A stretch of 64,000 bases of DNA from Botryllus schlosseri (Eukaryota), in NCBI GenBank assembly GCA_051294905.1, contig CM119372.1, positions 30,320,001 to 30,384,000 of the forward strand, written 5' to 3'. Shown in pieces: positions 1,591 to 51,610 of this stretch. The position numbers were made by a program, and so were the translations under genes. Position 1 is the stretch's first letter; every line of letters starts with the position of its first letter. The notes beneath the pieces were generated by a model that was not told where the DNA came from, searched no databases, and worked only from the letters and a program-made list of their open reading frames with translations.

Positions 1591-3267
1591 CAGGGGTGGG
1601 CAACATACGGCCCGCGGGCCGGATCCGGCCCGCGAAGGGATTTTGTCCGGCCCGCGGACAGTTTTCTGTCTTATATGATAATGTGGCCCGCGGCCCCAGT
1701 ATTCAGAGATTCCCTGCTACTTGCGTAAACGTCAAATTTTAGTGACTGTATGTTATTATACACACGTATGCGCACTGCGCAGTGAGCGAGGGTGGTGATT
1801 ACTCGTAAGTTAGTCGAAGCGAGAAGACTTGCATTATCGGCATTTACGATGTACTCGACCCTAATGTCATTTGTGGTAATGATGGTATTTGTCGACTACA
1901 ATGGTCATTTACACTAGGCCGATATTTCATATTTTTGATTCCGTAACCGTCGACTTGTAGCACGACACACTTCTAGGCTTTTGTATGACATCGCTTATGC
2001 CAGGGGTCGATAACTCGAAACGGTTCGCGGGCCACTTTCAAAATTTGTAGAGGCCGCGGGCAGCATGAATTCAATATCGAGATAAAATAGGCCACACAGT
2101 TGAACAACCACGCTATATCTCGTCACCTACTAAACCAGGGTGGCCAACCTGCGGCCGTAGAAGGGAAATTTGTGGACAAGTAATTCAATTAGTACCGTAT
2201 GTGCGGGCGGCCGTCGACATGCAATTTGAATTTACAAATTGAGTCTCGATTTTTTGAGAGATCCTAATCAATCTTGAAATTTTCTTCGCGCTGCGCGCGA
2301 TTTAATGTGACTTCGTTTATCGATTTTAATATAGTGGCGCCCTTTGCAATCATAGCCCCACAGTACAGACGCGAACAGCAGAGGAAAATGATGCGCCTCA
2401 TATAGAAATACCAACTCGGAGTCTTGTACTCCTCACTATACGGACAATCTTGATGGTAGGTCAAGAAATAATAGCATGCAACCAAGTGACTAATTATAAT
2501 TGGCCCACCCGAAGATGCATCATCATTGATATCTTGTCCTAAATTTTCGAAAAACACACCCTCCATCAAATCTACAGTTGAATCTGATGACATCGGATGA
2601 GAAATAATATGAAAAATACTATTATTTGTGACGAAAGTCATAGGTGAATCGGAAAATATTTTCGCGCTTCGCGCGATTATGTACGGCCCATAACATAACC
2701 ATGACCAGTCACCAGCAGTCACCACTCGCGAAGTCGGTGCGTATAGTAAGCCTGTGTGATTAAATGAATAAGTCCGGAGTTCACCGGAAAAGGAAATGGA
2801 CACTATAACATGTGTATTTGGCGTCCAGATAGTTCATTACGACTATGCCCTGGAATGCGGCCGTAGGCTACATGAGTAGTCGAAATGCGGCCGTGAATGG
2901 CAAAAAGGTTGGTCATACCTGTACTAAACCCTAATGAAGAGATATCTTGGTGAATTTGTAGTACCGGGCTTATCGAACGCCTTGAAATCTTAATTAGGGA
3001 TTGCACCGTGGTGATCGATCAGAGAGAAGCAAACATAGTCGTGCCTGTATGACAATGCTGTTCTCAAATCCACATTGTCTTCGTCATTATTGGCGAGAAA
3101 TGGCTTTGAAGTTACATTGCTGTCGTTAAAATACATTCATTAAATACTATTTATTCCTTGTATATGTGGATAATTGGGCGAATAATGTATCGATTCAGGA
3201 ATCCGGCCCGCCAAGTATTTAATTTTCCTATATCCGGCCCGCCGACTGGAGAAGTTGCCCGCCCCTG
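1591..3267. mobile_element. hAT (Buster/Charlie-like) non-autonomous element carrying nested inserts
   Basis: Termini CAGGGGTGGGCAAC...GTTGCCCGCCCCTG; perfect TSD ccctacta (1583-1590, 3268-3275); GGCCCGC subterminal repeats; shorter sister copy at ~38840-39396. Confidence 0.9.
2136..2921. mobile_element. hAT MITE nested in the 1591-3267 element
   Basis: Termini CAGGGTGGCCAACC...GGTTGGTCATACCTG; perfect TSD tactaaac (2128-2135, 2922-2929). Confidence 0.85.
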
Positions 3268-3320
3268 CCCTACTATAATGATATGAATTGTGTTTTCAAC
3301 AGAGACTCAAGTACGCAGTC

Positions 3321-6300
3321 ATGATAACTTACATTCCTACAGTTATTATAACCCTGCTGGTCATCACCCAGTCCAGAGCACTTGATCAAAGTAATTGTAT
3401 GAAATTGGAGAGTGTATATAATGCAATATGTCCGAATACGCCAAAACATGCGATCCACCAAGGGCCACCAGGCAAAACCGGTCCAATCGGACAAAAAGGT
3501 GATAAGGGTGACACTGGTAGCCCTGGGCCAACTGGGCCGTCAAAACAGCCAAATTACCAGCGAGTTGAAGAAGTGATCTCAAGCAGAGTTCAAGAAGGTC
3601 GGTAAACGGTTTATGTTTAGGGATGTTATAAGTTTTATGCATATATAGACCTACATACGGTCGTACCACCAGGGCGTCCCTGCCATACTCCATACCCAAA
3701 TTATAGTCGCCCAAGCTCGAAGTGCACTCAAAATTAATTCCAAATCAATTTGACATCAGGAATTTTTATTTGTTTTAATTAGTCGATTTGGAAATTTTCT
3801 TTAGTGCGCTTCGCGCAGTCGATTTACAGTTTAGAGTTAGATTCCCTGTTATGTGAACAAAATACTATAGGAGTCGGTGTGTTTAACGTTACAGGAATCC
3901 GAAGCATAGTCTGAGTTGGTCTGGAGTCGGTGTCGACGTTAACGTATAGCTGGTAAAGTGAACAGACTCACGAGCCTTGGTTAAAATTGCGTAAATTCAT
4001 AAGCGAAATCCCTCAAGGGATGATTAGTGAGTTTCATTCACTGCATATTTACTAATGCTTTGCCACCTGTAATTAATTAGCATGGAATTTTTAGCGGCAA
4101 CAAATTCAATAACTTTGATGCATGTCGGGACTATAGTGGCGTAAAAGTACATTCCACGTGCTACTTTCTGCAGTATCCGTAGAAGTCAACGGGATTCTAC
4201 CACAATTCAAAGTCAGAGAGTGACGGTGGGAACTGCGGAGTGAAACAACAATAAAATCGCATAAATGCCGCCCAACATAGCGTCACCGTTGTACCGTCAA
4301 TGGGTAGCGGGTGCAAGGTCGATTCATCTAGGCCAGGCCTGGGCAAAGTGCGGCCCGCAGGCCAATTGTGGCCGCAAAAGGTTGCTTGCAATTCAAAACA
4401 TAAAACCTTCTTCGTAATGATGCTGTGTGGACCAAAACCATATGATATATATAAACTGAACCAGAAATTCGTCTAATATCATGCCGCGATTATGCAGCCT
4501 ATTATGTACCTCACGCGTGATCCACATTCAAAATAAAGTCAATGTAGCAAATTAATGCCGTGACAATTGAAGTCACAAGAAGTCACCAAACCTTCTCTGT
4601 TTCCATTTGTCACATTGCTCAAGACACGATCTATGTTCCAAATTTTATGTGATACGTTTCCAAACCCATAATTCGTAAAACAAGTCAATCAGTTATCGTG
4701 ATTTCTATGAGTCATCGTCACCCATAAACGATGGACGGGCATGTCAAAAAAAGGAAGCCGAAAGTTGTGATTCAAAGAAGCTTCAGAGGACTAAATATTT
4801 GTTTACAGAAGTCTGGGGGCAGCCCGCCTCTTTAGTAGTTAGTGCCGAGCAGGTCGCCGTGTTTGCGGAGTATAAATTAAGTAGGTTCCATGACAAAAAC
4901 ACGAAGAATTTTTGAAGAACTGCTAGTTCAACAACAAGGCCATTTCGCCAAGCTGCCCACTGCACGGAAGCCAACGAAAAAGACAGCAAACTTCATAGTT
5001 TCCCAAATACGTTTTATTGTATTGATAGAAAAAGGCGGATAGGGGTTCAAGGATAATTCGAAATGTTGAACATTGTTTCCAAATATGACGGCAAATAAAT
5101 ATTATTTTCTGGTAATAAACCGTCACTTCCTTATTCCCTAGTATCAACACATCCAATGAGCACCATTTTGTGTAATTCACTGCTTTTAATTTTAGAAATA
5201 GAATTGATACGCTGTAGAATACAGCCGAAATTTCGGACTCGGCCCGCCAACAAATTTTCAGCTACTCATTTGGCCCACGGAGAAATATTTCCCCACCCCT
5301 GATCTAGGCCCTCCGTGGTCGTCCTATACGAATAAACGTTGTCCTACAACATAATAGAATGAAACTTACCTATGCTCACGAAGAATCGATAATTATATCA
5401 TCGTGGTGCAAAACGATCAATGATTTATGGTTGTTGATACCCCACGAATAGGAACATCCACAGCAACACTAGTCTAAGAGAGCGTGAAAAATACCTACTT
5501 TTATTTTCAAAGGTTTGCAAAGTATGATGAGGACGTTTGAATGTGAGTCCGACCGATTCTTACACTGTGTTTAACGACGAGGTGACTATACATTATTGCA
5601 GTTTGCTATATGGGAATGAAGTCCGGATTACTTCCTGACTCTGCGATAATTTCATCGACATATTGGGGTGCTAGACACGAGCAGTACCGAGCACGTCTGG
5701 ATAATAGGGTGTCCGAAGGAAGCACGGGATCGTGGTCATCGAAGACGAGTGAGTAATGAATATATTCCGATGATAGTTTTATCAGTGTTGGAATGACTCG
5801 AGTCAGTCTCGAGTCACCTTTTTCGTAAGACTTGACTTGATTCGAGTCACTTTGCAAAAATGACTTGACTTGACTCGGCGCTTCAGAAATGTGGATTGAC
5901 TTGTGACTCGGAGCAAAATTGACGAGTCAATGTCGAGTCATTATAAGTAAGCGGTGTCGATTACATCATCCTATCTTATGTACGTTCGGGTTATTCTCGA
6001 TACGCCGGTGTCACTTGTGAGACCAATCAGTGATTCACTGATTACACGTTTCACTGATCCCCTTTGTCACATCGCAAATAAATTGACCGCCAAGGAAACG
6101 ATCACAGCTTACGTTGTCGTAGTCGTAGTAGCAGTTGATTAATCTAATAGCAACGTATCTTTGTTTCTTAGACGGACCAGTGCTTATTGCGCAGTGCTCA
6201 CCTTTACCAACATTCTTGTATGATTTAAATCGAACGAATATAGTTTATGCCTTTATATTCTCCCGGATGTGTATATCGGTAGTGTCTATTGTACCACATC

Positions 6301-9300
6301 AATTTGTTCAACGTCTCGAGGCTTCGTATTCGATCCTCTGCATTGGCTGATAAAATCAGACTAGCATAATAGCTATAGCTACTTATGTATTTTTTAGCAG
6401 TTCTACGTGTGCGCGAGCGATACAACACCTTTTTGCATGTATATTTAACTTTATATTCGTTATTTGATTCAAGATAAATGTCCAATTAATCCGCCCTTCA
6501 CCCAGTTAGCAAATTGTAATGACTTTGCATCATCACTCATACTTTGAAAATTAAATTTGACTTGAATCGTGACTTGACTCGTGACTTGACTCGACTTGAC
6601 TCGACTTGACTCGAGTCACCTCCAAAAAACGAGTGACTTGACTTGACTCGATTCACCTGTGAAAATCGATTGACTTGACTTGACTCGAGTCAAAATGTGC
6701 AATGACTCGAGATGACTCGTGACTCTAAGGTAGTGACTTGATCCCAACACTGACTTTTATGCGCATAGCCCATACTTGCGTTCGCGTCCATAGGCTTGAA
6801 ACTGCCGAATGTGCGATACCGAATGAAGAAGTAGTGTGAGACCCGACAAAGGTTCTATCAACACGGCCTGAAATCCGAGGCCGTATATATTGGTAAAATC
6901 ATAGCAAGCCACAGTTTTTTGTAATACCCCACCGATTTTGATTCCATGGTAACAATCTATTATATTTATATGATTGAATAAAATCGTCCGTGCGGTAACC
7001 AAAGCTCATATCGCACAGCAGTTTAGTAGGCCTATATGCTATGCAACAGAATCAGCTATAAGTATATGATTCTCAGCCAATTATGTAGTTCTCATCATTC
7101 AAATATCTATTTTTGTTTTGTAATCGACTTATCGGGCCATTTTCACAATGCATAATCGTAATGTAAATTGATCTTACAGTACAATGTAATCTTTTCGGTC
7201 GGCACTCATTCACACGCACCTGTCTGTCTTTCTCGCATCCTCGTCTGTGTTTGTCCTATTGACTCGAACTGCAGACAGTCCATATTAATATAATATATCT
7301 TGACGAACAGATACAATTGGCGAGTGGATAGGGGTAGACTTCGGAACGGTGAAAAATGTGGCTAGATTGATCACGCAAGGGCGACCGCAGGTTCTCAATC
7401 AGTGGGTCAGCAAATTCAAAGTAGCATGCGGAATTGATCGGAATGACTTTCAGTTTGTGATGAAAGGCGATTCTGAAATGGTAAGTGTCACGAAGTGCAA
7501 TGACACTATGCCAGTGGTTCTCAACCATTTTGGCTTCGCGGACCCCTATGGACCGTCACGGACCCTCGCGGACCCCCTCCAGGTTTAGTTCAAATTCAGC
7601 TCAAATATGGTGCAACCTTCATCTGTCTTGTGCAAATATGAACTGTCGGCATGTGAAAAACAGCAGCAAAATGACTTATCTTGAAACTAACACCATACTC
7701 TTACGCGTGTGTTCTAGCTGTTCGGCAACTAAGTGTTTTTAATGTGCAACTACGAACTAGAACAACTCACTACCAATCTGTTGGTCTAGTCTGCCCCCAA
7801 CTATTTTCATTCTAGCTACAACGCACGATGTCACGGTCTATAAGCGGATGGCTATATCGGCAGATTCAAATGTTGGGTAAAGAATTGCGAAATAACGATT
7901 GGTGCTCTTTTCAAGTAGCGACAAATGAAAATAACACACATCGACATAAAATTTGCCATGAGGATTAATGCTTCACGTAGGTCAACGTATGATTATTGCC
8001 TACAATTCATATATTGCGAACTTCCCGATCGTACAACGGCAAGATCAGCTTGAAAATGATTTATGTCAGCAGCCGTTGTTTCAATGCTCATGTTTTATTT
8101 GAAGAGTAGAAAATTTCAAATCTTTGTCCGGTGTAGGCTTCAATCTCCCCGTATAGCAACAACTGCGTAAACATAACGAAACATCAATATTTACATTACT
8201 ATTTGAATCTAGGCAGAGTATAGTGATTACAATCGTCCTCCTGCAATGTACTGCTGCCTGTGTGTATCGAAAGCCTGACATACGGCATCAAAGCGTTTTT
8301 TTCAATCGTACTACTACATCGAATAGATATTTATTACGTGTGGATAATTCGCTACGAAATGATGAGAAAATCTAATACTTATGAAGTAATAATTATCATT
8401 GAGCAGTGGAGTTGGGAAATCCAACATTTCTGCTATCAATAACCGGATAAAATATCTCACCATATTCCTTGTTCACGAATCTTCAGCTTATATCATAGTC
8501 TTTGTAAAATGTACGAGTAAAAATTAACCGTCTTTTACAAAAAGTCGATTCGATATGCGAAATAATTGATTACGAATATTTCAATTTTTTTCGAATGTAA
8601 TTGCGATTACGATTACTCCAGAATCCTGCAATCGTTGCAATCGATTACGATTACAAGTCACTATTACCTAGTGTTACCATATTTGGAGATCCGAAAAAGG
8701 GGTCACTTTTCAAAAATTCTGAAATATCTAGTATCGGAAAAGAAAACTGGTGATTTTGCAATATTTTCGACCGATAGTACTGTGTTGACTAAAAAAAGGT
8801 CATCACTCTGACTCACCTCCTGGATTACCCGCTTTTTTACAATACCGAGTTGTACGGTTGACTATGAAAAAAAGTTCATCACTCTGACACGACTCCCGAA
8901 TTACCCGTCGCGCCGTATTTTTCGTTGTCTGTCTTGGCAACTCTGACGTTCGCTGCGTCGGCGTCGAGATTTTGATCGTATTTCAATACTTCCTCTAGAA
9001 ACGAAGACAAATTCGCAAAAAAAAAGACATTTAGGCGTCCTCCTAGGACACTTTCAATGTATTCGAAAGACGACAAATGTGGTAACGTCCCCTCTTATTT
9101 TTGACGAGTCTGCGCACACTCACCAAGTTACTGCGCACACCCTTGGACAACAGTGCGTAACAATTAAAAAAAGGTCATCACTTCGGATTTTTTGTGCGCA
9201 ACTTCGATTTTCTGTGCGCAGAGACCGTGTCAGCACTGCGCATTTTCGCACGTGCCCAGCATGGAGGGAACATTGAGGGTAACCCTACTATTACTCCATG

Positions 9301-10588
9301 TCTGGTACCTTACTCCTAGGGATGGTGTGAACCCCTGAAAGGTTCAGGTTCATGTGAACGCGAACCTTTTTAAAAGGTTCTGTGTGAACGCGAACGGGAA
9401 CCGTGACGTGACATGACATCATATTGCTCATTTCAACCCTACATTTCAGTGAACTGATATATTATTGTGCACGATACCTAGCGACGACTCAGGTCACATT
9501 ATGCCGCAATGCTGAAGTAGCCTACATGCTGACTTCGCCAAATGTATCAACTGGAGCAATCAAATGCTATATTAATTACATAAAATCAATGTCTTCCGTC
9601 CCTTTGTCAACAATTACGACGAGGACTTGCAAGGGAATAAAATCTTACGCCGTAACGGTATAGAGCCAGACCTGACAATGTATTGGCCGTCTGACTATAC
9701 CTACATATATATTGAGCAGAGTGTAAAAATGGTTTCTATACTAGCTACCGATATTACCCCACAGACAGGTTATACAGTAGCTAACACCCCAATCACATGG
9801 ATTTGATGCAATCGGCATATTAAATCAAGACGGATCCCCTATGCCTTCTAAATTTTTTACATAGACGACGATGTGTTATTTATATCAATTTCATTGATTG
9901 GTTGAAGAAGCATATCATTCGTTGACTAGTTATACATGTAGTGTGTTTCGTTCTTTATGTTGTATGATTGTGGGTCAAGCTCACAGCAGAGAGTCACTAA
10001 ATATTCACAAAAGGAAAGCTGAATATTTCGAGTAAACTTTTGTAACAACGCATGTAAAAACTTTAGTGTTGATTTTTTAAATGCTGCCAGTGCCATGCAT
10101 AGTGTGGTCTGAAGTTGAAATGCAAAGAATTTCAGCCAAATATGATATAATGACGTGAAAATTGTAATACATGAAAAGGTTCACAGTGCATAACCTACCA
10201 AGGTTCGTTTGTGAACGTGAACCTCTAAATTTCAGAGGTTCACATATTGAACGCGAACGTTACCTCACGTTCACACCATCCTCACTTACTACCTTGCCGA
10301 TTTAGCACTTCGCCTTTGGCAGTATATATTTGGACCATTTCACTTCTACGTATAGCTGTAGCATGACGATAATATGGTGCTGCGACCTGAGCTACGCCTA
10401 CTACAGTGATGTCTTATTATTCGCAGATTTTCACTGGGAACTCGGACTTTGAAACCAAAGTCTACAATCGCTTCCCGGCTGTAGTTTCCTGTCGATACAT
10501 TCGGCTCTATCCGCAAGAATGGAACAATCATATCTCTATGAGATTTGAATTGGTGCACGGCCACTGCTTCGACATTAAGCCGCTTTAA
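3321..10588 (+). CDS. Secreted collagen-like + discoidin (F5/8 type C) domain protein, 261 aa; join(3321..3597,5513..5542,5602..5748,7311..7480,10427..10588)
   Basis: All four introns are GT..AG with compatible phases (1,1,1,0); 786 nt in frame to TAA. Hydrophobic leader MITYIPTVIITLLVITQSRA, two Cys, 9 Gly-X-Y triplets, neck, then F5/8C motifs CYMGMKSGLLPDSAI, ARL, SWSS, EWIGVDFG, ITQGR, QWVSKF, FTGNSD, RYIRLYP, SMRFEL..C. Confidence 0.9.
4334..5301. mobile_element. hAT MITE in intron 1
   Basis: Termini CAGGCCTGGGCAAA...TTTCCCCACCCCTG; perfect TSD atctaggc (4326-4333, 5302-5309). Confidence 0.85.
5783..6752. mobile_element. hAT MITE with GACTT/GACTCG subterminal arrays (intron 3)
   Basis: Termini CAGTGTTGG...CCAACACTG; TSD agttttat/acttttat. 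Confidence 0.85.
8669..9287. mobile_element. hAT MITE inserted into the end of an older GATTAC-repeat element (intron 4)
   Basis: Termini TAGTGTTACC...GGTAACCCTA; TSD ctattacc/ctattact; left end resembles the 42538 and 45884 family. Confidence 0.75.
9317..10284. mobile_element. hAT MITE with GTGAAC subterminal repeats (intron 4)
   Basis: Termini TAGGGATGGTGTGAAC...GTTCACACCATCCTCA; TSD cttactcc/cttactac. Confidence 0.85.
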
Positions 10589-11200
10589 ATATTCGTATCC
10601 AATATTTCATTCGTAGTAATCGTAAAATACTCGATTGTGAGGAAACTGGCTACGCTCCGTACCTTACTTGACCCTGGATGAGTTTGTCCGTAGCGAAGGG
10701 ATTGCATTTCTATCCAAGCTGTCGAATAGGATTTCTGACTCGAATGTTTGATACTTTCGTAGCAGCCGTGCTGATTATCAACTATATATATATATAGAGA
10801 GAGAGAGAGGTTTCATACACTTTCACGTCTACTTCTGCAGTTTTGTAGCCAAGCGTCGTCTAAAAAGAGAAGTTTACATAATTTCACCAGTATATTCGAC
10901 AAAGTACGAGACTACTAGCCTACCGTATATTGCGCATATGGCGATAACGCAATGTAAATTGGAAATAATACATTGTATTAAACCTGACAGGATGGTGATT
11001 TCTGTTTGCTTGTATCGGTAGTTAGGGAATCATTTTTTGGATATGGATCATGAATAAAGACCAGGGGCGGGCAAACTACGGCATGCACCGTCTTGTGCGG
11101 CCCTCGAAAGCCACAAGAAACTTTGTAAAAATATTGATACTTGAGTACTTGATCAAACTTTTTCTCGATATCTTTCAACATGATAATGATAAGTCGTATT

Positions 11201-13217
11201 TAGGGCAAGTCTTTGCAACTTTTGCAACTTTTTTTACAGCTTCCGACAGCTTCGTAGATACTCATAATCTATGTACTTACTATGATGTTTTAAGCTGTGG
11301 AGAAATTTTATAGTGCAACTTTCTGCAACTTTCCTCTATTTTTCATAGTCACCTTTTACTGCAACGTTTATCAAATATTGTGTAAAAATGTAAAGGAGTG
11401 ATTTAAAAACATGCTATAAACTATTTCTAGTATGGTTCTACTCTCTTCGATTTGAAGAGACTCTTTGGGGTACAGAACTTTAATATACATTTTAATAATA
11501 TATTCATAGTAAAATATATTAAAACCCGAAGCTTTTCGAGCTGACACTTTTCTAGGGCAATCGTCAGCAAATGGAGAATTTCAAAAACATGCATCTAGCT
11601 ACATTGCATACAACCAATTATGGCGTCATAGAAACAAACAACATGAAATACAGGCAAACCGCGAGCGCAGCTAGTGGCCAATTTTTAGATTCACTAAAAA
11701 TTCCTTCTGCTGACACAAGCGCGGTCGGTGGATTTTAATATAAGTCGATTACAGGGCAGACAGGTGGAAATGAGTGCGGCCTCTACCTAATATAGAAAAT
11801 CTTTCATCGCGATAGTTTTTAGCGCAAGTTGCATTCTCAGCCAAATGCTTGCCGATGGCAGAGTTCATAGCCATGGCCTGATTACGTTCTAGTAATCGCA
11901 GATCAGTTACGGCTGGGTCTTCGCGAGAGTCCAATGTGCGTGATCTAATAACGCTCGGAACATGTTGTTTGATGCTTTCCTGCAAGCGCTGAGTTGTTCT
12001 TCCCACGTACCGACAATCACAGTGGCACTTGAAATCATAGACTATATTGCTTTGTTGAGAAGCAGGAAGAACATCTTTGCGCGTTGCAGGAAGCAATTGC
12101 TTGGTGTTAACACAACAATAGTTTTTACGTTATCGTAACAGCGATTTACAGCAGAAATCAATTGCTTTTCAAACCGGGAAGAGATGGGGCCCAGCCACGG
12201 TAAATGTATGTATACATTTTCCTCAGACCGTGTGTTCGTTTTTTGTGATTTGTTGGGATTGAAATTACTGAGTTTTCTGTCCACAGAACTCTTGATGATG
12301 TGTTCGGGGTACCCGTTATCGATTAGAATTTTGCGGATATATTCTAGCTCCGCGTTTAATTTTACATCCGAACAAATCATCAAGGCCCTGTGCACCAACG
12401 TGGCAATCAAATTTAGTTTACGGCGATTCGGGCTAAAAGAATTCCAGCGTATATAATGCCCTGTAAACGTTGGCTTCCGGTAAACCGAAGTGACAAAGCT
12501 AATACCCCGTTTTTTCACTAGAACGTCTAAGAATGGTAACGAGTTAGCACGCTCTTTTTCAAATGTGAATTCGAATGTGATTTCGAATGTGAATTCGATT
12601 TGCATAACAAATAGCTATATGATGGGTTAGCTGCATCTCACTTTTAAATATGACACAATGGAGAGAAGTCCAACTCCCTCTACCAAGCACGATGGTACCC
12701 GAGTAATATTTATTGTAAATATGCCGCTTCATTAATTCTGTCGTTTAAATTTGAAAAGTTCCCCATTTCACCAACGCGCAGAAAATGACTATTTCACTGA
12801 GTCCTCTTTTTCAGGCTATTGATTTTGTTGAAAGTTGCCAAGAGTGAGTTTTCCTGTAATGCCTTGGGTCAAGTTTGCAGATCTAGGGGGTTTAGAGTGT
12901 GTTATTCTACTTGTTTATGGGGAGGTGGTTATCGCCATGCTGTTTGGCTTTTTTTGGGGGGGGGGATTATTCCTGCATTGCGTAATTTTCTTGCTGTGTG
13001 CCGGAAAAGATGTAACTTTTGTCGATTTCGTCAGACCCATGAATGGCGAAGTAACAAATTTGACATCTCTGCAGGAACTAGGTTATACAACGGAACCTTT
13101 CGAGGATCTCATACCCTAATAATTCAACAAAAATTACAAATGCAACTTTTTACTGAAACTTTTGTTAAAATGAAATGCAACTTTCTCACGATTTTACTGC
13201 AACAAAAACTTGTCCTA
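11201..13217. mobile_element. Nested hAT MITE with GCAACTTT subterminal repeats
   Basis: Termini TAGGGCAAGT...ACTTGTCCTA; TSD gtcgtatt/gtcatatt. Confidence 0.75.
11500..12605 (-). pseudogene. 5'-truncated Penelope-like retroelement (RT thumb + GIY-YIG endonuclease + pseudo-LTR)
   Basis: FTFEKE..SLPFLDVLV, VYRKPT.TG.Y..WNSFSP and GIY-YIG NIVYDFKC.C...YVGRT.QRL..IKQH; frameshift near 12090 and a stop at 11749-11751; ORF end ..PRLCQQKEFLVNLK. Confidence 0.9.
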
Positions 13218-16171: not shown

Positions 16172-19100
16172 TTACGTAGGTCTATAGAAATCCGGGGGTT
16201 TCCTATTCCTAACAGGATAACGTCTACCCGACGTACGGGCAGGACTAGCTGCAGGAACTTGTGCCCTGTTCCTAACCAATGGTTGCTCAGCTTGTGACTG
16301 TTGAGGCTGAGCAACTTCCTGTGTGGCTGTATTATTGCCAGCTGAAATCAAGCGTGGTTGGAGTTGGTTTTTGTGCCTCCTCCAATACCCATGATCCGTT
16401 TTTATAATGTACACAACACGCCCCAGTATTTCCGTTACCACGCCAGCAACCCACTTTGGTCCGCTCCGGTAACTGCGAGCGTAGACCGAGGAACCAATCT
16501 CGAAATGAGTGACTGATTGTCTAGGCGTAACGGGCTTCGATTTGTCGAAGGGCGAGCACAAACTTAACAAATTGCGCGGCTGCCGACCATGTAAAATCTC
16601 GGCAGGCGTTTTCCAGTCTATGCCCGGGTGCGGTGCACATCGGTATGTAGCGAGAAGTGTTTGGAGAGCGAAGTTGAGATCTTTTCCCCCGTCGCAATTT
16701 TTTATTAATCCAGCTTTTAAAGTCTGGACGAATCGCTCCGCTTCCCCGTTTGAGGCAGGGTGAAAAGACGGTGATACGATATGGCAGATTGCCAAATTGG
16801 AGCAAAACGTATCGAATTCATTCGATGTGAATTGCGGCCCGCCATCCGTGACAATTGTTACGGGCAAGCCTTCAATAGAAAAGACTTCCCGCAATGCGTT
16901 GACTACACACAAGGTTGTGGTAGATCCGACATTCATTACTTTAACGAAAGGATATTTCGAATGCGCATCGACGATGACAAGAAACATTTTGTTGTTTATT
17001 GGACCTGCGAAATCCAAGTGAATTCGATCAAAGCTTTCGGAAGTTTTGGGCCATTCGCGATACTGACGATCAGGCGCTTTCATTACCTTACGGCAAGCGT
17101 CGCAACTCTTAGCGAGATTTTCAATGTCGCGATTAATGGAAGGCCATGCGATGTAACGTCGAGCCATCTGCTTCATTTTCGCGATACCCCAGTGTCCTTC
17201 GTGCAACAATGATAAGACTCGCGAGCGAAGTGACTGCGGAATTACTACGCGCTGAAAACCATCAATATTGAGCATAACTATGTCTTTGTGCAGAGAAAGC
17301 GAATGTTTGCGAGTCGAAAACCAAGAAAAATCATCGATGTGCGTCTTTGGATTCCAATTACCATGAGTGACAGATAATTTTACTAGTTTCATGGTTTTGT
17401 CCTTCAGCGTCGCGTCGCGAATTTCATTGCGAGTTAACGGTAAGCCATCGAATGCCATATTAATAGCGTGAACGACCTCCGCGTTTTCACGAATTTCCAG
17501 TTCGTCAAACTCAGGGTCTGGACCCTTTGGTAGGCGAGATAAACCGTCGGCGTTTCCGTGCTGATTAGTCGGTTTATAGCGAATATCGTATTGGTAAGCC
17601 ATGAGCGTTAGTGCCCATCGCTGCAAGCGTTGCGCTGTAATCACGGGAATTTTCTTGTCTGGCGAGAAAATAGCTAAAAGCGGTTTGTGGTCCGTTACGA
17701 GCGTAAATTTTCTACCATACAAGAATTGACGAAATTTAGTGACTCCGTAAATGATTGACAGAGCTTCCTTCTCGATTTGAGAGTAGGATTTTTGCGAATC
17801 GGAAAGCGTTTTCGATGCGTGCGCGATCGGTCTCTCTTCGCCATTGTGCTCGATTGAGAGGACAGCGCCGATTCCGAATTGAGAAGCATCAGTTGACAAA
17901 ATGAGCTGCTTGTTTACATCATAATGAGCTAACTGCGTAGCGTTGATTACGTCGTTTTTGAGAATGCGAAAAGCTGCGTCACAGTCCGTATTCCAAATGA
18001 ATTTCGCGTCTTTTTGAAGTAGACGGTACAAGGCAGCGGCTTTATTCGTGAAATTAGGAATAAACGCGCGATAATAATTGACTTTGCCCAGGAATGCCTG
18101 TAGTTGGCGAACATCCTGAGGTTTAGGCAACTGTTTGATTGCTTCAACGGATTTGTGAGACGGGCGTTTGCCGTCCTTGTCGATTATGTGACCAAGATAC
18201 TCGATACTACTTTTGAAAAATTCACATTTAGCGAAGTTGACGGTGAAACCGTATTCGGTGAGGCGCTCAAAGAGTAGCGATAAGTTGCGAAAATGATCGC
18301 GTTCATCAATGCCAGTAACGATTATGTCATCGATAAAACTAGCAACACCGGGTAAGCCGGTGATCATGGCATCAATACAGCGTTGAAAATTTGCGGGACT
18401 AGATGCGACTCCGAAACACATGCGTCGATAACGGAATAGACCGAATTGCGTGTTGATGACACACAAATTCTTCGCATCATCATCTAATTCTAGCTGAAAA
18501 TAAGCAACTTTCGTGAAAATACAACCACCCTGTAACTTGTGAAGAATTTCATCTAAGGAGGGCAGGGGATGTTGATCTATCTGAATCTGTTGATTCAATG
18601 CTTTGAAGTCACCACAAATGCGTACTGATCCATTTGATTTAGTGACGGCAACAATTGGTGCTGCCCAATCACTGTAATTGATTGGTTCGAGAATACCTTG
18701 ATTGACTAATCTATCCAATTCGGTTTGAACAGCGATTTGCCTTGCGAAAGGCAAAGGGCGTGGCTTGTTGAATACGGGCTTGGCATTAGGTTTCAAGTGA
18801 ATTGTCACCTTTGTCTTGGTGCATCGTCCTAATACATTAGAGAAAACGGAGGGAAATTTGGACTGAAAAGATACCAATTTGTCGTTCGAATCAGAAATGT
18901 CAATAGTATTACATGATTGCGATTTGACCATCTGCGAGGAAATTGCATCCAAAGCAGACGTTCCCTTAGCGGTCATGGAGAAAGCATCGCTCCAATCGAG
19001 ACCAAAAATGTTTTGCCCACGGTGTTCGTCGAGAACCACCAATTTTAAGCCAACTCGAACTTCAGAACCCACCTGCACGGTTACAGTGCAAATACCTTTC

Positions 19101-20311
19101 ACTTTCAGTGGCTTGTCGCCATACGCTACGAAAGAGCAATGGTATGCTGAGAGTTTCGGTGAGCCCAAAGTTTTGTACCCAGTCAATCCCACCATGGCGG
19201 AGGGTGCACCAGTGTCCCACTGTGTCGGCAAAGGAATGCCGTTGATGCTGGAGTTGATCCAGAGCTGGTTTCCTACGCGTCGATATAGTTGATCGATGTC
19301 GAAGGAGAGGAGTGGCACTGAGCAGAAATTGACGGATGTGACCTGTTGCGTGATACTAGGTTTGGTAGACATGCACACCGGTTTGATATGACCTTTACGA
19401 CCACATTTCTGACATACTGCATGTCGATATTGACAGTCTTTTCTCTGGTGATCGATGAAACAGCGGCTGCAGGATTTCAGTCTTTCCGGGAAGTTGCCTT
19501 GGATGTATTTGGAAGGTTTTTTTCCCTTCTGATAACTTCCAGTCATTTTGTTGACGACTGAAGTGTCTTTACCGCTACTCTCGTCTTGGATAACCCTATC
19601 AGTTTCCAGCGTTCTCACGTGTGTTGCGGCTACTTTGAGAACGTCGTCGAGGGATGGATTGGTTTGTGTTAGACAATGCCGTCTCACATCCGCGTGCGGC
19701 GTTTCTTTAATGATGAGATCGCGCATTAGCTCATCAACGTAGCTTTGATCACAGCCTTCTCTTGAGCATATGAAGTTGCAATCCTTGGAGATTCCGCGTA
19801 GGGTAGCGATCCAATCGGCGTACGATTGTCCCGGCTGCATTTTGCAATTGTAAAATTCGTACCTGGCAGCTTGCACATGAATTGAGTCCTTGAAGTGTGT
19901 AGACAACTTCTCAGTCAACGCGTCGAAAGTTTGCGCGCTGACATCAGCAGCACCAAACAAATTACGTAGGAGCGAGTACGTTTCAGGTCCAACCCATGAG
20001 AGTAGACACGCTCGTTTCTTCTCCATGTTGGAAATGCCGTAAATTGCTAGGTGATGGTTGAATCGCTGAAGATATTGGTCCCATTTCTCCTTTGATTTTA
20101 CGAAAGAATCAAACTTGGGAGCGGTAGCTTCAGATGTTGACGCACCGGGACTCAACCTCTGCGTTAACTGTGCCATTTCTTCTTTGTGTTGGTCTTTTTG
20201 CTGTTCCAACCCAGCCATGACTTTCGCCATTGCCTCGTCATGCTGTGCGCGTTGTTGCTCCATCATTTCCTGCTGCTTCTCGAGAAGCTTCAAAATACCC
20301 GATTCCATCAT
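16172..20311 (-). CDS. Ty3/Gypsy (Mag-like) single-ORF Gag-Pol polyprotein, 1379 aa
   Basis: Two CCHC knuckles, protease WDTGA, RT (RICGDFK, FGVASSP, FIDD), RNase H (TDAS, EKEAL, TDHKPL), integrase HHCC + D,D,E (HLDFAGP, TDGGPQF, NGEAER). Confidence 0.95.
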   Translation of the reverse strand: MMESGILKLLEKQQEMMEQQRAQHDEAMAKVMAGLEQQKDQHKEEMAQLTQRLSPGASTSEATAPKFDSFVKSKEKWDQYLQRFNHHLAIYGISNMEKKRACLLSWVGPETYSLLRNLFGAADVSAQTFDALTEKLSTHFKDSIHVQAARYEFYNCKMQPGQSYADWIATLRGISKDCNFICSREGCDQSYVDELMRDLIIKETPHADVRRHCLTQTNPSLDDVLKVAATHVRTLETDRVIQDESSGKDTSVVNKMTGSYQKGKKPSKYIQGNFPERLKSCSRCFIDHQRKDCQYRHAVCQKCGRKGHIKPVCMSTKPSITQQVTSVNFCSVPLLSFDIDQLYRRVGNQLWINSSINGIPLPTQWDTGAPSAMVGLTGYKTLGSPKLSAYHCSFVAYGDKPLKVKGICTVTVQVGSEVRVGLKLVVLDEHRGQNIFGLDWSDAFSMTAKGTSALDAISSQMVKSQSCNTIDISDSNDKLVSFQSKFPSVFSNVLGRCTKTKVTIHLKPNAKPVFNKPRPLPFARQIAVQTELDRLVNQGILEPINYSDWAAPIVAVTKSNGSVRICGDFKALNQQIQIDQHPLPSLDEILHKLQGGCIFTKVAYFQLELDDDAKNLCVINTQFGLFRYRRMCFGVASSPANFQRCIDAMITGLPGVASFIDDIIVTGIDERDHFRNLSLLFERLTEYGFTVNFAKCEFFKSSIEYLGHIIDKDGKRPSHKSVEAIKQLPKPQDVRQLQAFLGKVNYYRAFIPNFTNKAAALYRLLQKDAKFIWNTDCDAAFRILKNDVINATQLAHYDVNKQLILSTDASQFGIGAVLSIEHNGEERPIAHASKTLSDSQKSYSQIEKEALSIIYGVTKFRQFLYGRKFTLVTDHKPLLAIFSPDKKIPVITAQRLQRWALTLMAYQYDIRYKPTNQHGNADGLSRLPKGPDPEFDELEIRENAEVVHAINMAFDGLPLTRNEIRDATLKDKTMKLVKLSVTHGNWNPKTHIDDFSWFSTRKHSLSLHKDIVMLNIDGFQRVVIPQSLRSRVLSLLHEGHWGIAKMKQMARRYIAWPSINRDIENLAKSCDACRKVMKAPDRQYREWPKTSESFDRIHLDFAGPINNKMFLVIVDAHSKYPFVKVMNVGSTTTLCVVNALREVFSIEGLPVTIVTDGGPQFTSNEFDTFCSNLAICHIVSPSFHPASNGEAERFVQTLKAGLIKNCDGGKDLNFALQTLLATYRCAPHPGIDWKTPAEILHGRQPRNLLSLCSPFDKSKPVTPRQSVTHFEIGSSVYARSYRSGPKWVAGVVTEILGRVVYIIKTDHGYWRRHKNQLQPRLISAGNNTATQEVAQPQQSQAEQPLVRNRAQVPAASPARTSGRRYPVRNRKPPDFYRPT

Positions 20312-22295: not shown

Positions 22296-25200
22296 ATGTC
22301 GAAGATAGTACGTTCATCAGGTGGTAGTGGTAGTCTTTGCTGTGCCTATGGGTGCAGTAGAAGGCGGAAGAAGATATCCAGTGAGTCGTATGCAAGAAGT
22401 AATAGTGACGGCAGTAGTGATGAAGAGTCGATAGTAAAGCGGCGATACCCCAGAACTTTTCACCGGTAAGTGAATAACAGAATAAGCATAGCAGCCAGAC
22501 ATGGCCAGATCAGTCACAGTTGTAATAAACAGGCCATGGTAAAGTGATAGCAGAACATTTCGTTGCAGTTATATGAATGAAATGACCAGACCAGTCTACC
22601 AGCAGAAATCCGTGCCACCATATCAGCTATGTAATGTTCATCATCAATATCTGTAATAATCTGTAATAATGTCCATCTCACCCTTTGTATTTTCTCCATG
22701 ATCGAGTACAAGCAGTTCGGCCAATAATCAGTGTGGTATTAAATTCTTGGTTATGCTATGTAGGCAAGAGTAGGAATACAAGGAAAGATTCAATTAATGG
22801 CCTATGGGTTTTTGTCAGCATATAGGTAAAACAGGATATCTTGTTCAGATTCTAAACAAATACTGTGGAATTTGCAAATTCCATAGTCAAGTTCATCTAT
22901 AGTCCTTATAGCTTTGTGCGAAACTGTCAATTTATTTATTCAAAAATATTTTTCAAGGTTTACCTTTGAACTGCTTTAGCTTTAGAAAGCTACCTCAATC
23001 TTGAATACAATAAGCCTATGGAGTGGAAAGTGACAGATGTATAATTTTATCAGACAAGATATTTTATGTACCTTCTGCTTTTATCATAGCCCATAACAAA
23101 GAATTGTCTATTTAGTGTGCTTTGCTTCATACAATGCTCCGTATAATGCAGCTTTCCTACTAATGAATCGCTGAAAGGAAGATGGGTAGAAAGCATAAAA
23201 AGAAAAAACTGGGTTCCATCAAGATCGTCAGTTATCTGCTCCGATCATTTTCCGGAAAGTGCCATTTACCGTGTGGGCCAGTTGATACGTTTGAGGGAGA
23301 ATGCGGTGCCAACAAGATTTCTGAACTTTCCGAAATATATGAGGACAAAGGTACAGTTGGAATTTATAAATTTACTTCTAAAGTCAAGTTTATATTAGCA
23401 TACCCTTACCCTAGCCACTGTTGATATGAAATTCGTTGATTTCAGGCTTCCAACAAACGGCAAGCGAGACCAGCAACACTTCAAGATAAGAAACGTTATT
23501 GTAAAGTACAGACTGGTGAAGCAGTTCTCCACGACCACAATTACTGTGCACGTACCTCTCCTCAAAAGCTCATTCAACAGCAACGCCGTAGAGTGCTAGA
23601 AATTAAAAAGAGATTGCATGCTGCCAGAATGAGGACATGCCGCCTGAGAAAAAAAGTGAAAACTCTGGATGAGGTCATTGCATCTCTGAAAAAAAATAAT
23701 TTGATCAGCGATTTGTGTGGAGAAGTAATGTCACAAAAATTCAGTCGTATACCCAGTGAGCTGTTGCAGCGCATGAAGCTGCAAGCTGGTGGAAGAGGAG
23801 TCAAATACTCTAAAGAACTGCAATCATTTGCAATGACGCTGCAGTATTATTCTGCTAAGGCATACAATTTTGTGCGTCAAAATTTTCAACTCGCTCTTCC
23901 CCATCCGAGTGTGATAAGACGCTGGTATGGAAAACTTCCCGCTGAGCCTGGCTTTACTGGTATTGCGTTTTCTGCTATCAGAGGAAAAGTAGAGGCATCA
24001 ACAACTCCTGTAATATGTTCCATAATGATGGATGAAATGTCGATCCGCAAGCAGGTTTTTTGGGATGGAAAAAGATATCGAGGATATGTAGACATGGGTA
24101 CTGACTGCGAGGACGATGATTCTTTGCCACTTGCAAAAGATGTATTAGTTTTTATGGCTGTTTGCGTCAATTCATCCTGGAAGATTCCGCTTGGATACTT
24201 TTTCATTAATGGTTTGACAGGATCGGAACGAGCAAATTTGGTTAGAATTTGCATGAACAAGCTTAACGAAACAGGTGCAACTATTGCTTCATTGACATGT
24301 GACGGGCCTTCCTGCCACTTCGCTATGCTTTCCTCATTGGGGGCAAATATATCCTCCAGGAACATTGTGTCTAGTTTTCCCAATCCATATTTACCCAATC
24401 ATCAAATCCAAGTCATTTTAGATCCTTGTCACATGCTCAAACTCATCAGAAACTGCCTAGCAGAATGGGGTACTTTGCTAGATGGGAGTGGTCAGCAAAT
24501 TTCTTGGAATTTCATCATTTTACTGCAAAAGCTACAGGCTTCAGAAGGTCTGAGACTTGCCAATAAGTTGAAGAAGTCTCATGTTGAATGGCAGCAACAA
24601 AAGATGAAAGTAAATTTGGCTGCTCAAACAATCAGCAGCAGTGTTGCAGATGCAATAGAATACTGTGACAAGAACCTTAGAATGAGATGCTTTCGGGGTA
24701 GTGCTGCTACTGTCAAGTTTTTGCGGGGTTTTGATCGCCTTTTTGATATCCTTAATTCGAGAAACCCGTTTGCAAAAGGATATAAATCGCCTTTAAAGGA
24801 GTCAAACCAGCATTTGTGGCGTCCATTTATGGCTGAAATGATGGATTATATTGTCAAATTGCAGGACCCCTCAGGAAAGCCTATTGTTGAATCTCGCAGG
24901 AAAACTGGGTTCCTCGGGTTCCTTGTTTGCATAAAGAGCACCCAATGCCTTTTTGACGACCTAGTGGTTACGAAAATGGTGAAGTACTTGCTGATGTACA
25001 AATTCAGTCAAGATCATCTGGAGTTATTTTTTTGTGCTGTCCGTAAAGCAGGAGGCTTCAACAATAATCCTACTTGTCTGCAGTTTACTGCTGCGTATAA
25101 AAGGTTATTGATGAAGTTGGGAATCCGTGCGTCATCAGGAAATTGTGAAGAAAGAGATTCAACTGCCATGTTGGAACTCTTGGATAATTTCCGAATTCAA

Positions 25201-25818
25201 GAAAGTGGACTGTCTCTTTCTTCTGCAACCCTGATCAGGAAGTATGACCTGGAAGAGAAACGGCCCATGCAAGACGAGCATGACTACTCCGATGTTCCTG
25301 AAATTACAACTTTGTCAGAGTACAAAAATCAAGCTATATCATACATTGCTGGCTATGTTGCCAAGTCCGTGGCTGAGCGATGTGTATGCTCTACGTGTAA
25401 AGGGTCACTCCTGGTAGATTCAGCAAGCAGTGGCAGTTTCCTGCAATTCAAGAACAGGGGTGGCCTAACCAAACCAGCTAATGGCGTTATTGCAATATGT
25501 GAGGAGGCTGAAAAATGCTTCCAGCGAATGATTCGCGTTACTTCTGAGAAGTTACCTCACTGCAAGGGCTTGATCAACGCGTTTGCAACTGCTATTCTGT
25601 CAAACATGTCTTCTAAATCACCTGCTTTCCCAGAGCTTGAACACCATATTTATGACACCTCGGTGGGTGATGATCACGTGATTACTCTGACAAAAGACAT
25701 AGCTAAGACCTATTGCAAGATTAAATTCAAACATCTAGGAGTGGAATACAATCAAAGGACATCAGACAAGAACGTCCGCAGAGTGTTAACAAAGCTGATT
25801 CTTTTCAAAAATCAGTAA
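22296..25818 (+). CDS. P-element/THAP9-type transposase, 913 aa; join(22296..22465,23152..23350,23446..25818)
   Basis: GT..AG introns join the THAP zinc finger (CCAYGC...TFH|RFP...W...ICSDHF...AVPT) in frame; DHNY motif; catalytic MMDEM, TCDG, QDHLELFF; D.CHMLKLIRN; KMKVNLAAQ; C-terminal YIAGY and CxxC. Confidence 0.9.
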
Positions 25819-29462: not shown

Positions 29463-32400
29463 AGACACTTACGTGACCTTTGACACGAACCAATCAGGTT
29501 GCTGCAGGATGTAAACAAAGAACAAGGCCGGGCAAGCTTACTATGAGCGCTTATGGAAAAGGGTTGAAAAATGAAGGTTTTTAGCAAAATTACATTGAAT
29601 TGGCAATAGCTGGCTTTGGTGAATGGTAATAACTTAGAGCTATTATGTATTTGCAGTGTTCTAACCGACAATAAACATGAATAGTGGCAAGCACTCATCG
29701 GCATGGTATGTCCAAATGAATGGATTTCTGACAACTTTTCGAATGAAGCAACTATTGCTGTATTATCCTTAGTCCTTAGTCGTATACTATAGGATTGTCG
29801 TACCGAATTGCATGTATTAGATTAATCTTGAGTCAGGATATGTGGGGTATTCATTATGTGGGCTTGGCGTTATATGCGTTTTATTTATGGAATCGTATAT
29901 AGTATACAGTCTACATTCTGCATCATTATCTAGCAAATTACTGTTACACTGGACACTTGTCTGCATATTCAATGATCATATTAATATGATATATGTTAGG
30001 CAATTTGATCTGTTCCCAGCTGAAATCGTCAATTTTTGTTCTAGCTCATGTATATTGAATCAATCGGGACAAATGCCGGATAAACACTGTGCTAATAGCC
30101 TGTGTAACTTGGAGATGGCTACCTAGACCGTTCCTGGTGTGCGCCTGTACCTTTCCCAGCGCCAATAACATGCATGGAAGAATGTAAAATCTGGATAAAG
30201 GCATGTGGACTTCCTTGTAGTCATCTGAATTCTCATTTTATTAATAAAATGCCATATCTATTATCGTACCAAAAATATTGAATCGTGACATAATTTAGAT
30301 GAAACAATTCTGTTTTTCAAAATGAGTCCAATCTGAAATGCAGTAACACTTGATGCCACAATCGACTTGGTGTGTGTCTCGTTTTATTCCACGCCAGTTT
30401 TGCTGCTTGATGGTGTGTAATGGATTGAAATTGTTGAGAGCAATATATTCAATAATAGCGGTGATACGCATGAGTCGGACGAGTACGCCTTGATAGGTGC
30501 CTGCACAGCAGTGTTGCTCTGTAAAATAAAAATAGTATATATTTTGTGCAGGCTTGATGGATATCTTTAATTAAGCTGCAGAAAGAGGAAGTCGATGGAT
30601 AAAACGCAAGAAAATCAAATTTCTGGAAGAAGTAGAAGCACAAAACAGGAAACTCGTCCAGGAAAATTTCAAATTTACGGACAATTATTGCTAGTGACGT
30701 CTGACGTTCAGTTCTCAGAGAAGCATCATAATGTCAGAAGATGCGGAGAAGCTGAAATTTTATGCTAGACTACAATAAATTCTGTCCGAATTGCCCTACT
30801 TATCCTGCTGACGTCAAATTTATAGTATTGCTGTAAGCATAGTATTAAACCTTTGGGTCAACTGTATGTAACTGCTTCATGAAATTCGATTTGGCCATGT
30901 AGATATGTGGTTCTTAAAAATGCACCATTTGCATTCGTTCATGATTTCTCAAAACTAGAATGATTACTGACTGTCAATAAATCACATACAACTTTGAAAG
31001 GATTGATGGATTGTGGTGCACTTACTTTTGTGCAGGAACTGTTCACAAGGAAGGGACCTTTCAGATCGGAATATTAGTGAAATATGTGGATTCGACAAGA
31101 AATGTGAGAAAATGATGGAGTTCAGCTATGGTGAACCAGGAAATGCTATCATGGCAGAAAAGGGATTCACCATTGAGTCTGAAATCAAGAAATTGAATCT
31201 AGATTTAAATATTCCTGGACATGATTTGGCACACCGTCAAATGCCTGAGCCAGACTGTTCCACAACAAGACAGATAGCGAGACAACGTATTCATATTGAA
31301 CAACTGATCGGAAGAATCAAGGAGTATAAAATTTTGTCTGGTGTCATACTATGCAGCATTGTGTATCAACTAACCAAATATGGACTAATTGCTTACTCTA
31401 ATTCAAGATTGAAAATTAAAAATGAATGATGTAACATATTCAGCAATTGTGAAAATTCAGTTCCATTCTGAATATCGTAATGCCTAATAGCATGCAACGG
31501 ATCGTAATTGCGCGGTGCCATGGTCAATGTGTACCAACAGTGCATGTCTATTCATACTATATTCCAGTGGTGTGCATTGAAGCTCATTTAGATGCCCAAT
31601 TTGTTGAATGAACAATTCTCCAGGTGAAAATGTTCTAGGATTATTTGTGCTTGGTGAAATGTTATAAAACTAAAGACACCAGATACACCAAAATCTACCT
31701 TGAGGCAGCAGGAGTTGATCGGTTGCGAGTACGGTCGAGAGATTGCTTGTCAATCACGATCGAGCTCACTGATGCTGATGCAAATCACAATGTAGTCCTT
31801 GTAGCTTCAGGTGCTGGATTGTCTTAATCAATGCATATACATGAGAGTATATATCAGATCCTAATGTGAAAATAAATCATGGTTACAATATCTATTGCAG
31901 GAGTCTCTGACAAAATGTTTTTTCCTTACTTACCCTGTCTTACAAGTGCAAGACGAATCAATAATGGATTTTCTGAGAATGTGTATTTCCATTGAGTGTG
32001 ATATCTCACTTTTCCGCAAGTTGCCATAACATTGGCTGTTCACTATAGGATATTGCTTCCACAAAGAGTGGATTGTCTCCTCAATCTTTGTCCCTAAGTC
32101 ATGTACGTAGCGCTCCATGAAATACTTCGTAGCTTTCTCCGCGGTGTTAGAAGAAGATGCTGTTCCACTCAAATACAGAAATTCGATAGAATCTCCATAG
32201 CTTTCAAGTTTCATAATCAATACACCAAAATTGTGATGTGTGGCAGCAGCAGTATTTTATAGCATATCTTTCTGAACATGAGATATGCTTGAAAATTTCG
32301 CTCGAGACCTGGAGCCTATGAAATCGTCAAAATATGCATTACCACAATCCTAGTATATCCGAAAAATTGTCAAAAATCCATGCATTTAGACACAGCACGC

Positions 32401-41923: not shown

Positions 41924-42537
41924 GTCTTGTTAATTAAAAAATAGTTCCTCTAATGCTAGAATCTATAATTCACGACCAGATTAATGTATGTTACATATTA
42001 CTACAACCGACATTACAGTGATATTTCTTTGCAATTTACAAACTACTCAATGCTCATACGATCATACCAACACTGGAAATAAAATCGATACTCATTAAAA
42101 TGTTTCAAAACCACGTTATCACACTAGCTATACATTGAAGCGATATGTGGCAGGGTCTCAAACATATTCATAAAACGAACTGGACAGCACAAAGACCCTA
42201 AAATAAACGATGACTATAAAATAATATCGTTGCTCCAAACATTTCAGACCATCGAAGCAACGATGGTGTTGTACCATTTTAATACTGCGTATCAGCACTA
42301 AAATCTAATCCGGTCGATTGCATAAGAAATTTGGCAATCCCACTTCTATTGATCCATTCCAGCGTTAGTTTCCGAAGCACTTGACATATGAGATCAATAT
42401 AGACCAGGAACGGTGAACTAACCCCGTCACTGGTTGTCTAACTGCTATTACATTTAAAACTATAACTCCTCAGTACCTGAAAGCATATCAGCATTCGAGT
42501 CTCCGTAATTATAGTCTATTGACTATATATATATAGC

Positions 42538-51498: not shown

Positions 51499-51610
51499 TC
51501 GTAGCCCGCCCGACTGGGGCGCCCTTACCTCTGCCCATGTCCAGCGCAGGCCTGTTGGGCACCGACATTCTCGGAGAGCTCGAGGCTAACGGCAAGCTGC
51601 CCATCGATGA
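51370..51610 (-). pseudogene. Isolated exon of a cytoplasmic dynein 1 light intermediate chain (C-terminal adaptor-binding helix)
   Basis: SERVLANFFNSLLNRK matches the DYNC1LI helix SEGVLANFFNSLLSKK; (CT)n..CAG acceptor and G|GTATGT donor; no other LIC exons seen in the window. Confidence 0.75.

Follow-up and report, generated by a model that had tools for sequence, protein, structure and literature searches.

The gene, its transcript and its product

The window analysed here is a 64,000-nucleotide (nt) stretch of the Botryllus schlosseri genome (assembly GCA_051294905.1, contig CM119372.1, positions 30,320,001–30,384,000, forward strand). Near its start lies a five-exon gene for a 261-amino-acid (aa) protein made up of a leader, a cysteine segment, a short collagen stalk, a helical neck and a single F5/8 type C (F5/8C, or discoidin) head. 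We find that this gene is real and expressed and that its product belongs to an unnamed, mis-annotated ascidian family, most of whose members keep a conserved lysine in the stalk resembling the one at which MBL and ficolins dock MASPs. The exons (Table 1) splice into 786 nt that read through 261 codons to a stop with no internal stop, and the four introns (1915, 59, 1562 and 2946 nt) are all of the GT..AG type, in phases 1, 1, 1 and 0.

RNA evidence came from four of 24 listed sequencing runs (X1, X2, X5 and X9) aligned to 3100–11300; X5 is on record as RNA-seq, with about 6% of its reads used, and X1 and X2 are RNA by our guess. The joints of introns 1 and 3 were found in X1, X2 and X5 (three and ten X5 reads, respectively) and that of intron 2 in X1 and X2. 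Two contigs (X1 record 2 and X2 record 9) lead from exon 1 to exon 3 with 33 letters between their aligned parts; these are the last letters of exon 1 followed by the microexon, as expected from the model that includes it. The X1 contig reaches on into exon 4. Intron 4 is supported by RNA indirectly: its joint was not found among the 15 of 81 joints listed, and the contig ends are compatible with it, one X1 contig stopping at 7480 and one X2 contig fitting from 10426 after 32 other letters. None of the gene's joints was among those listed for X9. Since the RNA joins exons 1-2-3-4, collagen and head lie on a single transcript. A sequence-only reading of this DNA had proposed the five-exon, 261-aa model and had named, as one result that would overturn its interpretation, a collagen exon unjoined to the discoidin exons; the contigs join them, and the open spliced frame together with the RNA joints rules out a splicing artefact of that reading. 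Over about 370 letters, the X1 and X2 contigs depart from the window at 14 (about 4%), which may reflect an allele or a very close paralogue; seven coding differences are listed for exons 1 and 3, and all but one of them are synonymous.

The predicted leader is hydrophobic, with a peak of 3.1 (nine-residue Kyte–Doolittle mean). Cysteines stand at aa 26, 37, 104, 191, 230 and 255, the head spanning Cys104 to Cys255 with two further cysteines (191 and 230) between them. Linker and neck together occupy 29 residues between stalk and head, and the neck (aa 79–102) is amphipathic, its helical moment being matched by 149 of 10,000 shuffles. Pfam F5_F8_type_C is matched over the cut-off by exon 4 (E 9e-9) and exon 5 (E 4.5e-7), while exon 3 alone gives no Pfam match and matches the family profile described below at E 8e-14. 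The stalk in exon 1 matches Pfam Collagen at E 1.2e-4, under the curated cut-off, so annotation overlooks it. An ESM Atlas search with exon 1 returned generic collagens only, with low recognition, and a PDB search with the stalk gave generic collagen matches only, with no MBL, ficolin or C1q among the 36 matches listed. No second family member was found in the 64-kb window, where the family profile matches only the four larger exons of this gene and the only run of at least five Gly-X-Y triplets is that of exon 1.

Modelling of the exon-1 part (aa 21–92) as a homotrimer supports the view that the protein is a trimer, as the sequence-only reading had inferred. The model scored 0.50 against 0.01 for the best control. 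The scale was calibrated with pairs: of 29 eukaryotic proteins solved as pairs, 17 attained the mark, as did 0 of 30 single chains; a collagen helix may pass from the predictor's memory. Runs shared at least 90% of contacts at a predicted local distance difference test score (pLDDT) of 70–72, and the contacts fall along the collagen, at both cysteines and at periodic neck positions. Assembly of three chains through collagen and neck is thus supported at the level of modelling. An AlphaFold2 model of a relative from Styela clava, P0122, built with 16 sequences, has a head mostly above pLDDT 90, a neck helix at 78–102 and a low-confidence stalk.

Table 1. Features of the gene and its predicted product in the window
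Feature	Position	Strand	Basis
Exon 1, coding part, up to a phase-1 end: leader, two-Cys segment, entire collagen stalk and the neck's first half	3321..3597	+	Pfam; RNA contigs 3363-3594 and 3372-3594
Predicted signal peptide, aa 1-20	3321..3380	+	Hydropathy; similar leaders in relatives; cleavage site inferred
N-terminal Cys26 and Cys37 segment, likely inter-chain disulfide hub	3381..3461	+	Both Cys in inter-chain contacts of trimer model
Collagen stalk, 9 Gly-X-Y, aa 48-74	3462..3542	+	Pfam; stalk length in Styela (17 clusters, 7-9 triplets)
MASP-site-like motif PGKTGP, Lys52 at 3474-3476	3468..3485	+	Motif defined in PMC2856262, PMC3179595
Linker and first part of alpha-helical neck	3543..3597	+	Trimer model; helical moment
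Exon 2: 30-nt phase 1-1 microexon, second part of neck	5513..5542	+	Contained in two RNA contigs (X1 record 2, X2 record 9)
Exon 3: start of F5/8C head (Cys104), spikes 1 and 2	5602..5748	+	RNA; family profile
Exon 4: head core, spike 3, extra Cys191	7311..7480	+	Pfam; RNA
Exon 5, coding part: head end (Cys230, Cys255), stop	10427..10588	+	Pfam; RNA contig from 10426; joint to exon 4 only indirectly supported
Probable 3' untranslated region, AATAAA at 11053	10589..11071	+	RNA contigs 10426-10774 and 10686-11071

Several further observations concern the transcribed region. In X5, about 830 reads align only to 7337–7383 (47 nt), with loose ends on both sides and a depth of 12–28 over neighbouring exon sequence; by eye, the loose ends read on as F5/8C-like sequence. 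This pile-up points to a far more abundant F5/8C-related transcript under the same species label, its N-terminus unseen. Upstream of the start codon by 18 nt is a pyrimidine-rich, acceptor-like AG (3291–3304), near which (about 3300) an X2 contig ends, so that the transcript may have a further non-coding exon upstream or may receive a spliced leader. High-copy repeats lie in introns 3 and 4 (5780–6750 and 8850–10290) and are very deeply covered by each of the four runs; GACTT-rich inverted arms lie around 5800–5940 and 6570–6750 within those of intron 3.

An unnamed ascidian family

Relatives of the gene were recovered from Styela clava. Word-index homologue searches with exons 4 and 5 gave none, a null result that is weak evidence because HMMER later found them. 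HMMER with exon 4 yielded 195 proteins, and among the 150 listed three have at least five Gly-X-Y triplets: P0122 (XP_039261982.2) and P0085 (XP_039254417.1), which align with the greater part of the gene model (41% and 36%) and are named lactadherin-like or retinoschisin-like in RefSeq, and P0102, a 1109-aa metagenome-type protein with five F5/8C stretches that was set aside. A profile search then retrieved 35 proteins among 1439 candidates, and the order leader-Cys-collagen-neck-head was found in 17 S. clava clusters, 12 of them on four chromosome-size contigs and five from an older annotation that may repeat genes. Each of these searches was limited by word matching or started from a single 56-aa exon, and they speak to Styela and B. 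schlosseri only.

The family has a consistent geometry, with 7–9 triplets and a neck of 26–34 aa (29 in the window protein and in 10 of the 17 relatives); this shared geometry and the hydrophobic leader bear out the secreted Cys-collagen-neck-head layout first proposed from the letters. Among 54 F5/8C domains placed in one tree, the window head and all 18 Styela heads form one clade (100/99). RefSeq names the Styela relatives, which also include P0176 (XP_077966304.1), 'lactadherin-like', 'retinoschisin-like' or 'inactive carboxypeptidase-like protein X2'. Pfam Collagen is among the precomputed domains of none of the 17 clusters, and on rescanning, four of five single-copy members tested matched it, all under the cut-off. 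The family has thus been hidden by a run of nine triplets that falls under the Pfam cut-off and by genes named after lactadherin. An ESM Atlas cluster labelled 'lactadherin-like' (257 aa, 59 members) has Chordata as its commonest phylum.

The same head occurs behind other N-termini in predicted S. clava models. P0120, in the head clade, has a leader, cysteines and a coiled-coil-like segment with no collagen, and P0181/P0214 have an extended N-terminal region and an internal hydrophobic segment before the head and may be a type II membrane form. Because the head starts two bases after the phase-1 intron 2 and the clade has three different N-termini, module swapping, which the sequence-only reading had invoked as exon shuffling, is plausible. 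The old fused model P0210 consists of three family copies in tandem.

Within the head, variation is greatest in the loops at aa 122–133, 138–153, 177–182 and 241–243, which we take to be the spikes that form the ligand face in such domains. The heads are mostly basic, with an isoelectric point of 8.9 in the window protein and 7.1–10.0 across the family. An extra pair of head cysteines is common to the window protein and most Styela relatives; the F5/8C domains of sea-urchin P0010, P0058, P0063 and P0004 also have this pair, and both cysteine patterns occur in four of 30 other F5/8C domains tested. F-type lectins bind fucose through a His...Arg-x-Asp...Arg/Lys pattern, which none of the 18 family sequences contains.

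The sequence-only reading knew of no named family with this architecture, and that claim stands in part: none was found, and the architecture is already present in RefSeq many times under wrong names. A search of the literature, in which subscription journals were thinly covered, gave no description of a collagen-F5/8C family. By their titles, Guo, Dou and Dong (2019; PMID 31140104) reportedly describe an agglutinating glycoprotein of S. clava, a 'lactadherin', which may or may not be a family member, and Nair (2000; PMID 10817915) and Green (2006; PMID 16716625) are said to concern collagenous lectins of S. plicata, which could likewise overlap with the family. The family is not described in the accessible parts of PMC12549020, PMC5712786, PMC6015906 and PMC5794833, and the part consulted of a survey of collagen-stalked complement initiators covers C1q, fibrinogen and C-type lectin carbohydrate recognition domain (CRD) heads only (PMC11312191).

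A conserved lysine in the stalk and the roles it suggests

The architecture itself is not unique; what is new here is a conserved lysine motif of the MASP-docking type. We compared the stalks of the window protein and the 17 Styela clusters (18 sequences), omitting P0151 (same cluster as P0122), P0196 (an 87-aa fragment) and P0120 and P0181 (no collagen). Triplets 1–3 contain the block Pro-Gly-Lys-X-Gly, which reads PGKTGP in the window. The X position of triplet 2 is lysine in 16/18 and the Y position of triplet 1 is proline in 18/18, while the other X positions are lysine in 0 of 140 cases and the remaining X and Y positions are mostly variable. The motif is kept on three deep branches of the tree (the window, P0085 and the main clade), and its final proline occurs in eight of the 18 sequences. 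Gly-Lys-Arg can act as a dibasic cleavage or amidation signal. Such a site was rejected here: Lys-Arg occurs in 14/18, but the window and P0122 read Lys-Thr, so the kept feature is lysine rather than Lys-Arg. In MBL and ficolins, according to the passages available of PMC2856262 and PMC3179595, the lysine alone is essential for MASP docking, the following residue (Xaa) is usually aliphatic, with serine tolerated and glutamate not, and the last proline is dispensable; in mammals a single motif lysine drives MASP binding and a small polar neighbour is tolerated (PMC2856262, same passages). Judged from sequence, the conserved lysine strengthens the idea of a defence collagen, an argument absent from the sequence-only reading.

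We therefore favour, with a probability of about 0.55, a secreted ascidian 'defence collagen' with an F5/8C head, that is, a trimeric, disulfide-linked recognition or agglutinating protein. Three chains would assemble through collagen and neck, and the N-terminal cysteines would link the chains and probably also the trimers. The clustered heads would bind a repetitive surface by avidity, such as a microbial glycan or membrane, probably an anionic one because most heads are basic, and the bound surface would be agglutinated or opsonised. With head loops that differ between paralogues, the family would cover more ligands; family expansion, the tandem array and the variable loops are consistent with what is seen in recognition families. 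The agglutinating S. clava 'lactadherin', should it be a member, would fit as well. In the most speculative step, the lysine of Pro-Gly-Lys-X-Gly would dock an ascidian MASP and lead to C3 activation, as in MBL and ficolins. Ascidian MASPs, C3, ficolins and MBLs are reported in the part consulted of PMC5465252. By this analogy with MBL and ficolins, we regard MASP recruitment by the family as a tentative proposal. We are just as guarded about the wider suggestion that the family is a fourth kind of collagen-stalked complement initiator in this ascidian lineage, in which variable F5/8C loops would sense microbes or dying cells and the lysine would recruit MASP.

Several observations weigh against the defence-collagen reading and its complement step. 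Xaa is arginine in 15/18, a residue outside the coverage of the available passages of PMC2856262 and PMC3179595, and the lysine is missing in 2/18. The window motif sits in triplet 2, adjoining the N-terminal hub, though MASP requires space between the stalks; in an engineered SP-A, the motif lay five triplets beyond the kink, leaving MASP room (PMC2856262, in the passages available). The stalk search of the PDB showed a hexamer of the PGKxG type in a fibrillar collagen as well, and it may be helix folding that keeps the block conserved. All 18 proteins compared are kin and not independent cases, although the motif is found on three deep branches, and loop variation occurs in any family.

Another role, which we consider unlikely but take seriously, is that of a mucus, tunic or matrix adhesin, whose trimeric head would cross-link host glycans or matrix in the endostyle feeding net, the tunic or the vessel lining without any part in complement, the lysine serving folding or another partner. 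The related transcript that is very abundant in one bulk library would suit such a role, as would the presence of sea-urchin nectin (P0008), an adhesive protein, among the F5/8C proteins near the family clade in the tree, but that link is not a supported branch (82/51). The collagen is moreover too short for a fibril, and the protein matches MBL and ficolins in its Cys-collagen-neck-head order and in having a single lysine at an X position. Expression bears on both roles: in the part consulted of a S. clava endostyle atlas (PMC10980280), four 'Mfgm'-labelled gene models, whose identifiers are not tied to the family, are markers of endothelial, thyroid-like/connective and neuro-immune clusters and of one numbered cluster. 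As markers of endostyle epithelial and endothelial clusters they would fit an adhesin, and among the rows listed these genes are not markers of the complement cluster, which counts against a defence collagen.

We consider it improbable that the protein is a lactadherin-like opsonin for dying self cells, with heads that bind phosphatidylserine and a stalk that engages a phagocyte receptor. The best fold matches of P0122 are indeed lactadherin C2 and factor VIII C2 (E 2e-16 to 1e-15), and most heads are basic. In lactadherin-type domains, a long hydrophobic spike 1 serves phosphatidylserine membranes. Here, spike 1 is six residues shorter than that of lactadherin C2 in 9/9 family heads aligned and has no conserved hydrophobic tip, the window keeping a Tyr-Trp that most relatives are without. 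RGD occurs in 1/17 relatives and not in the window protein, there is no EGF domain, and the highly varied loops are ill-suited to a single fixed lipid ligand. In favour of such an opsonin, the ascidian phosphatidylserine receptor is listed as unknown in the part consulted of PMC5465252. Least probable of all is that the protein is secreted as a trimer to act as a ligand or in self-recognition (signalling, gamete or colony), its discoidin pocket binding a protein in the manner of neuropilin b1 and DDR: peptide-bound structures of neuropilin F5/8C domains, the membrane-anchored-looking P0181/P0214 and the allelic divergence in RNA are in its favour, but the mostly synonymous differences do not suggest diversifying alleles and the conserved lysine is left unexplained.

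Surroundings of the gene and comparison with known systems

Elsewhere in the window there are mobile elements, repeats and other coding sequences. An uninterrupted 1379-aa Gypsy-type open reading frame (ORF) with reverse transcriptase, RNase H and integrase domains lies at 16172–20311 (-), a 792-aa P-element-like transposase ORF at 23440–25818 (+), a DDE_Tnp_4 transposase fragment at 31007–31429 (+), and a retroelement-like ORF remnant with no Pfam match at 12042–12614 (-). An intronless 381-aa pyridine nucleotide-disulphide oxidoreductase ORF that begins Met-Gly (40784–41929, -) resembles AIFM2/FSP1. A perfect 273-nt tandem duplication (50953–51498) overlaps the terminal part of a dynein light intermediate chain exon (51284–51667, -) and may be an assembly artefact. 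There are also a 625-nt near-palindrome (95%) at 53547–54171 and a 312-nt inverted repeat pair (99.7%) at 56442–57602.

Set against known systems, the window protein is closest to its Styela relatives, with the same domain order and lengths, 34–41% identity and a shared PGKxG block. It differs in having two N-terminal cysteines, where most relatives have three in the mature segment, and a 10-residue spacer before the collagen; the relatives are predictions only, under names that ignore the collagen. The protein is not a collectin, a ficolin or a lactadherin. To lactadherin (MFG-E8) and the C domains of factors V and VIII it is linked by the fold of the head (TM-score 0.83 to lactadherin C2, by target length, for the P0122 model), whereas lactadherin and EDIL3 differ from it in having two F5/8C domains rather than one, EGF domains, RGD and a longer spike 1, and in lacking a collagen stalk; RGD is not conserved in the family. 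Retinoschisin is likewise secreted, with an N-terminal cysteine segment and a single F5/8C domain (PDB match), and is a disulfide-linked oligomer without collagen or neck. F-type lectins are set apart by the fucose motif, absent from the window protein and its 17 relatives. Discoidins I and II have a C-terminal H-type lectin domain (PMC5712786, in the part consulted), unlike the window protein, which ends six residues past its F5/8C domain.

The likeness to defence collagens lies in the rest of the chain. As in the collectins (MBL, CL-K1/CL-L1, SP-A/SP-D), N-terminal cysteines precede a collagen stalk and an alpha-helical neck, but the head is an F5/8C domain by Pfam and fold rather than a C-type lectin CRD, and the stalk has 9 triplets with the motif at its N-terminal end; the lamprey MBL stalk has 15 (PMC6015906, in the part consulted). 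With ficolins and C1q the protein shares a collagen stalk bearing a protease-docking lysine, at the level of the motif, and a C-terminal recognition head, and it differs in having a helical neck and neither a fibrinogen-like nor a gC1q domain (Pfam, fold). A parallel with the initiators of the lectin pathway lies in the sequence of the stalk, where PGKTGP fits the MASP-docking motif and the lysine is widely kept in the family. If this parallel were to extend to function, the stalk with its protease-docking lysine would be a portable module that had received a fourth kind of head among the closest kin of vertebrates, their sister group, and the discoidin domain would have a direct role in starting complement.

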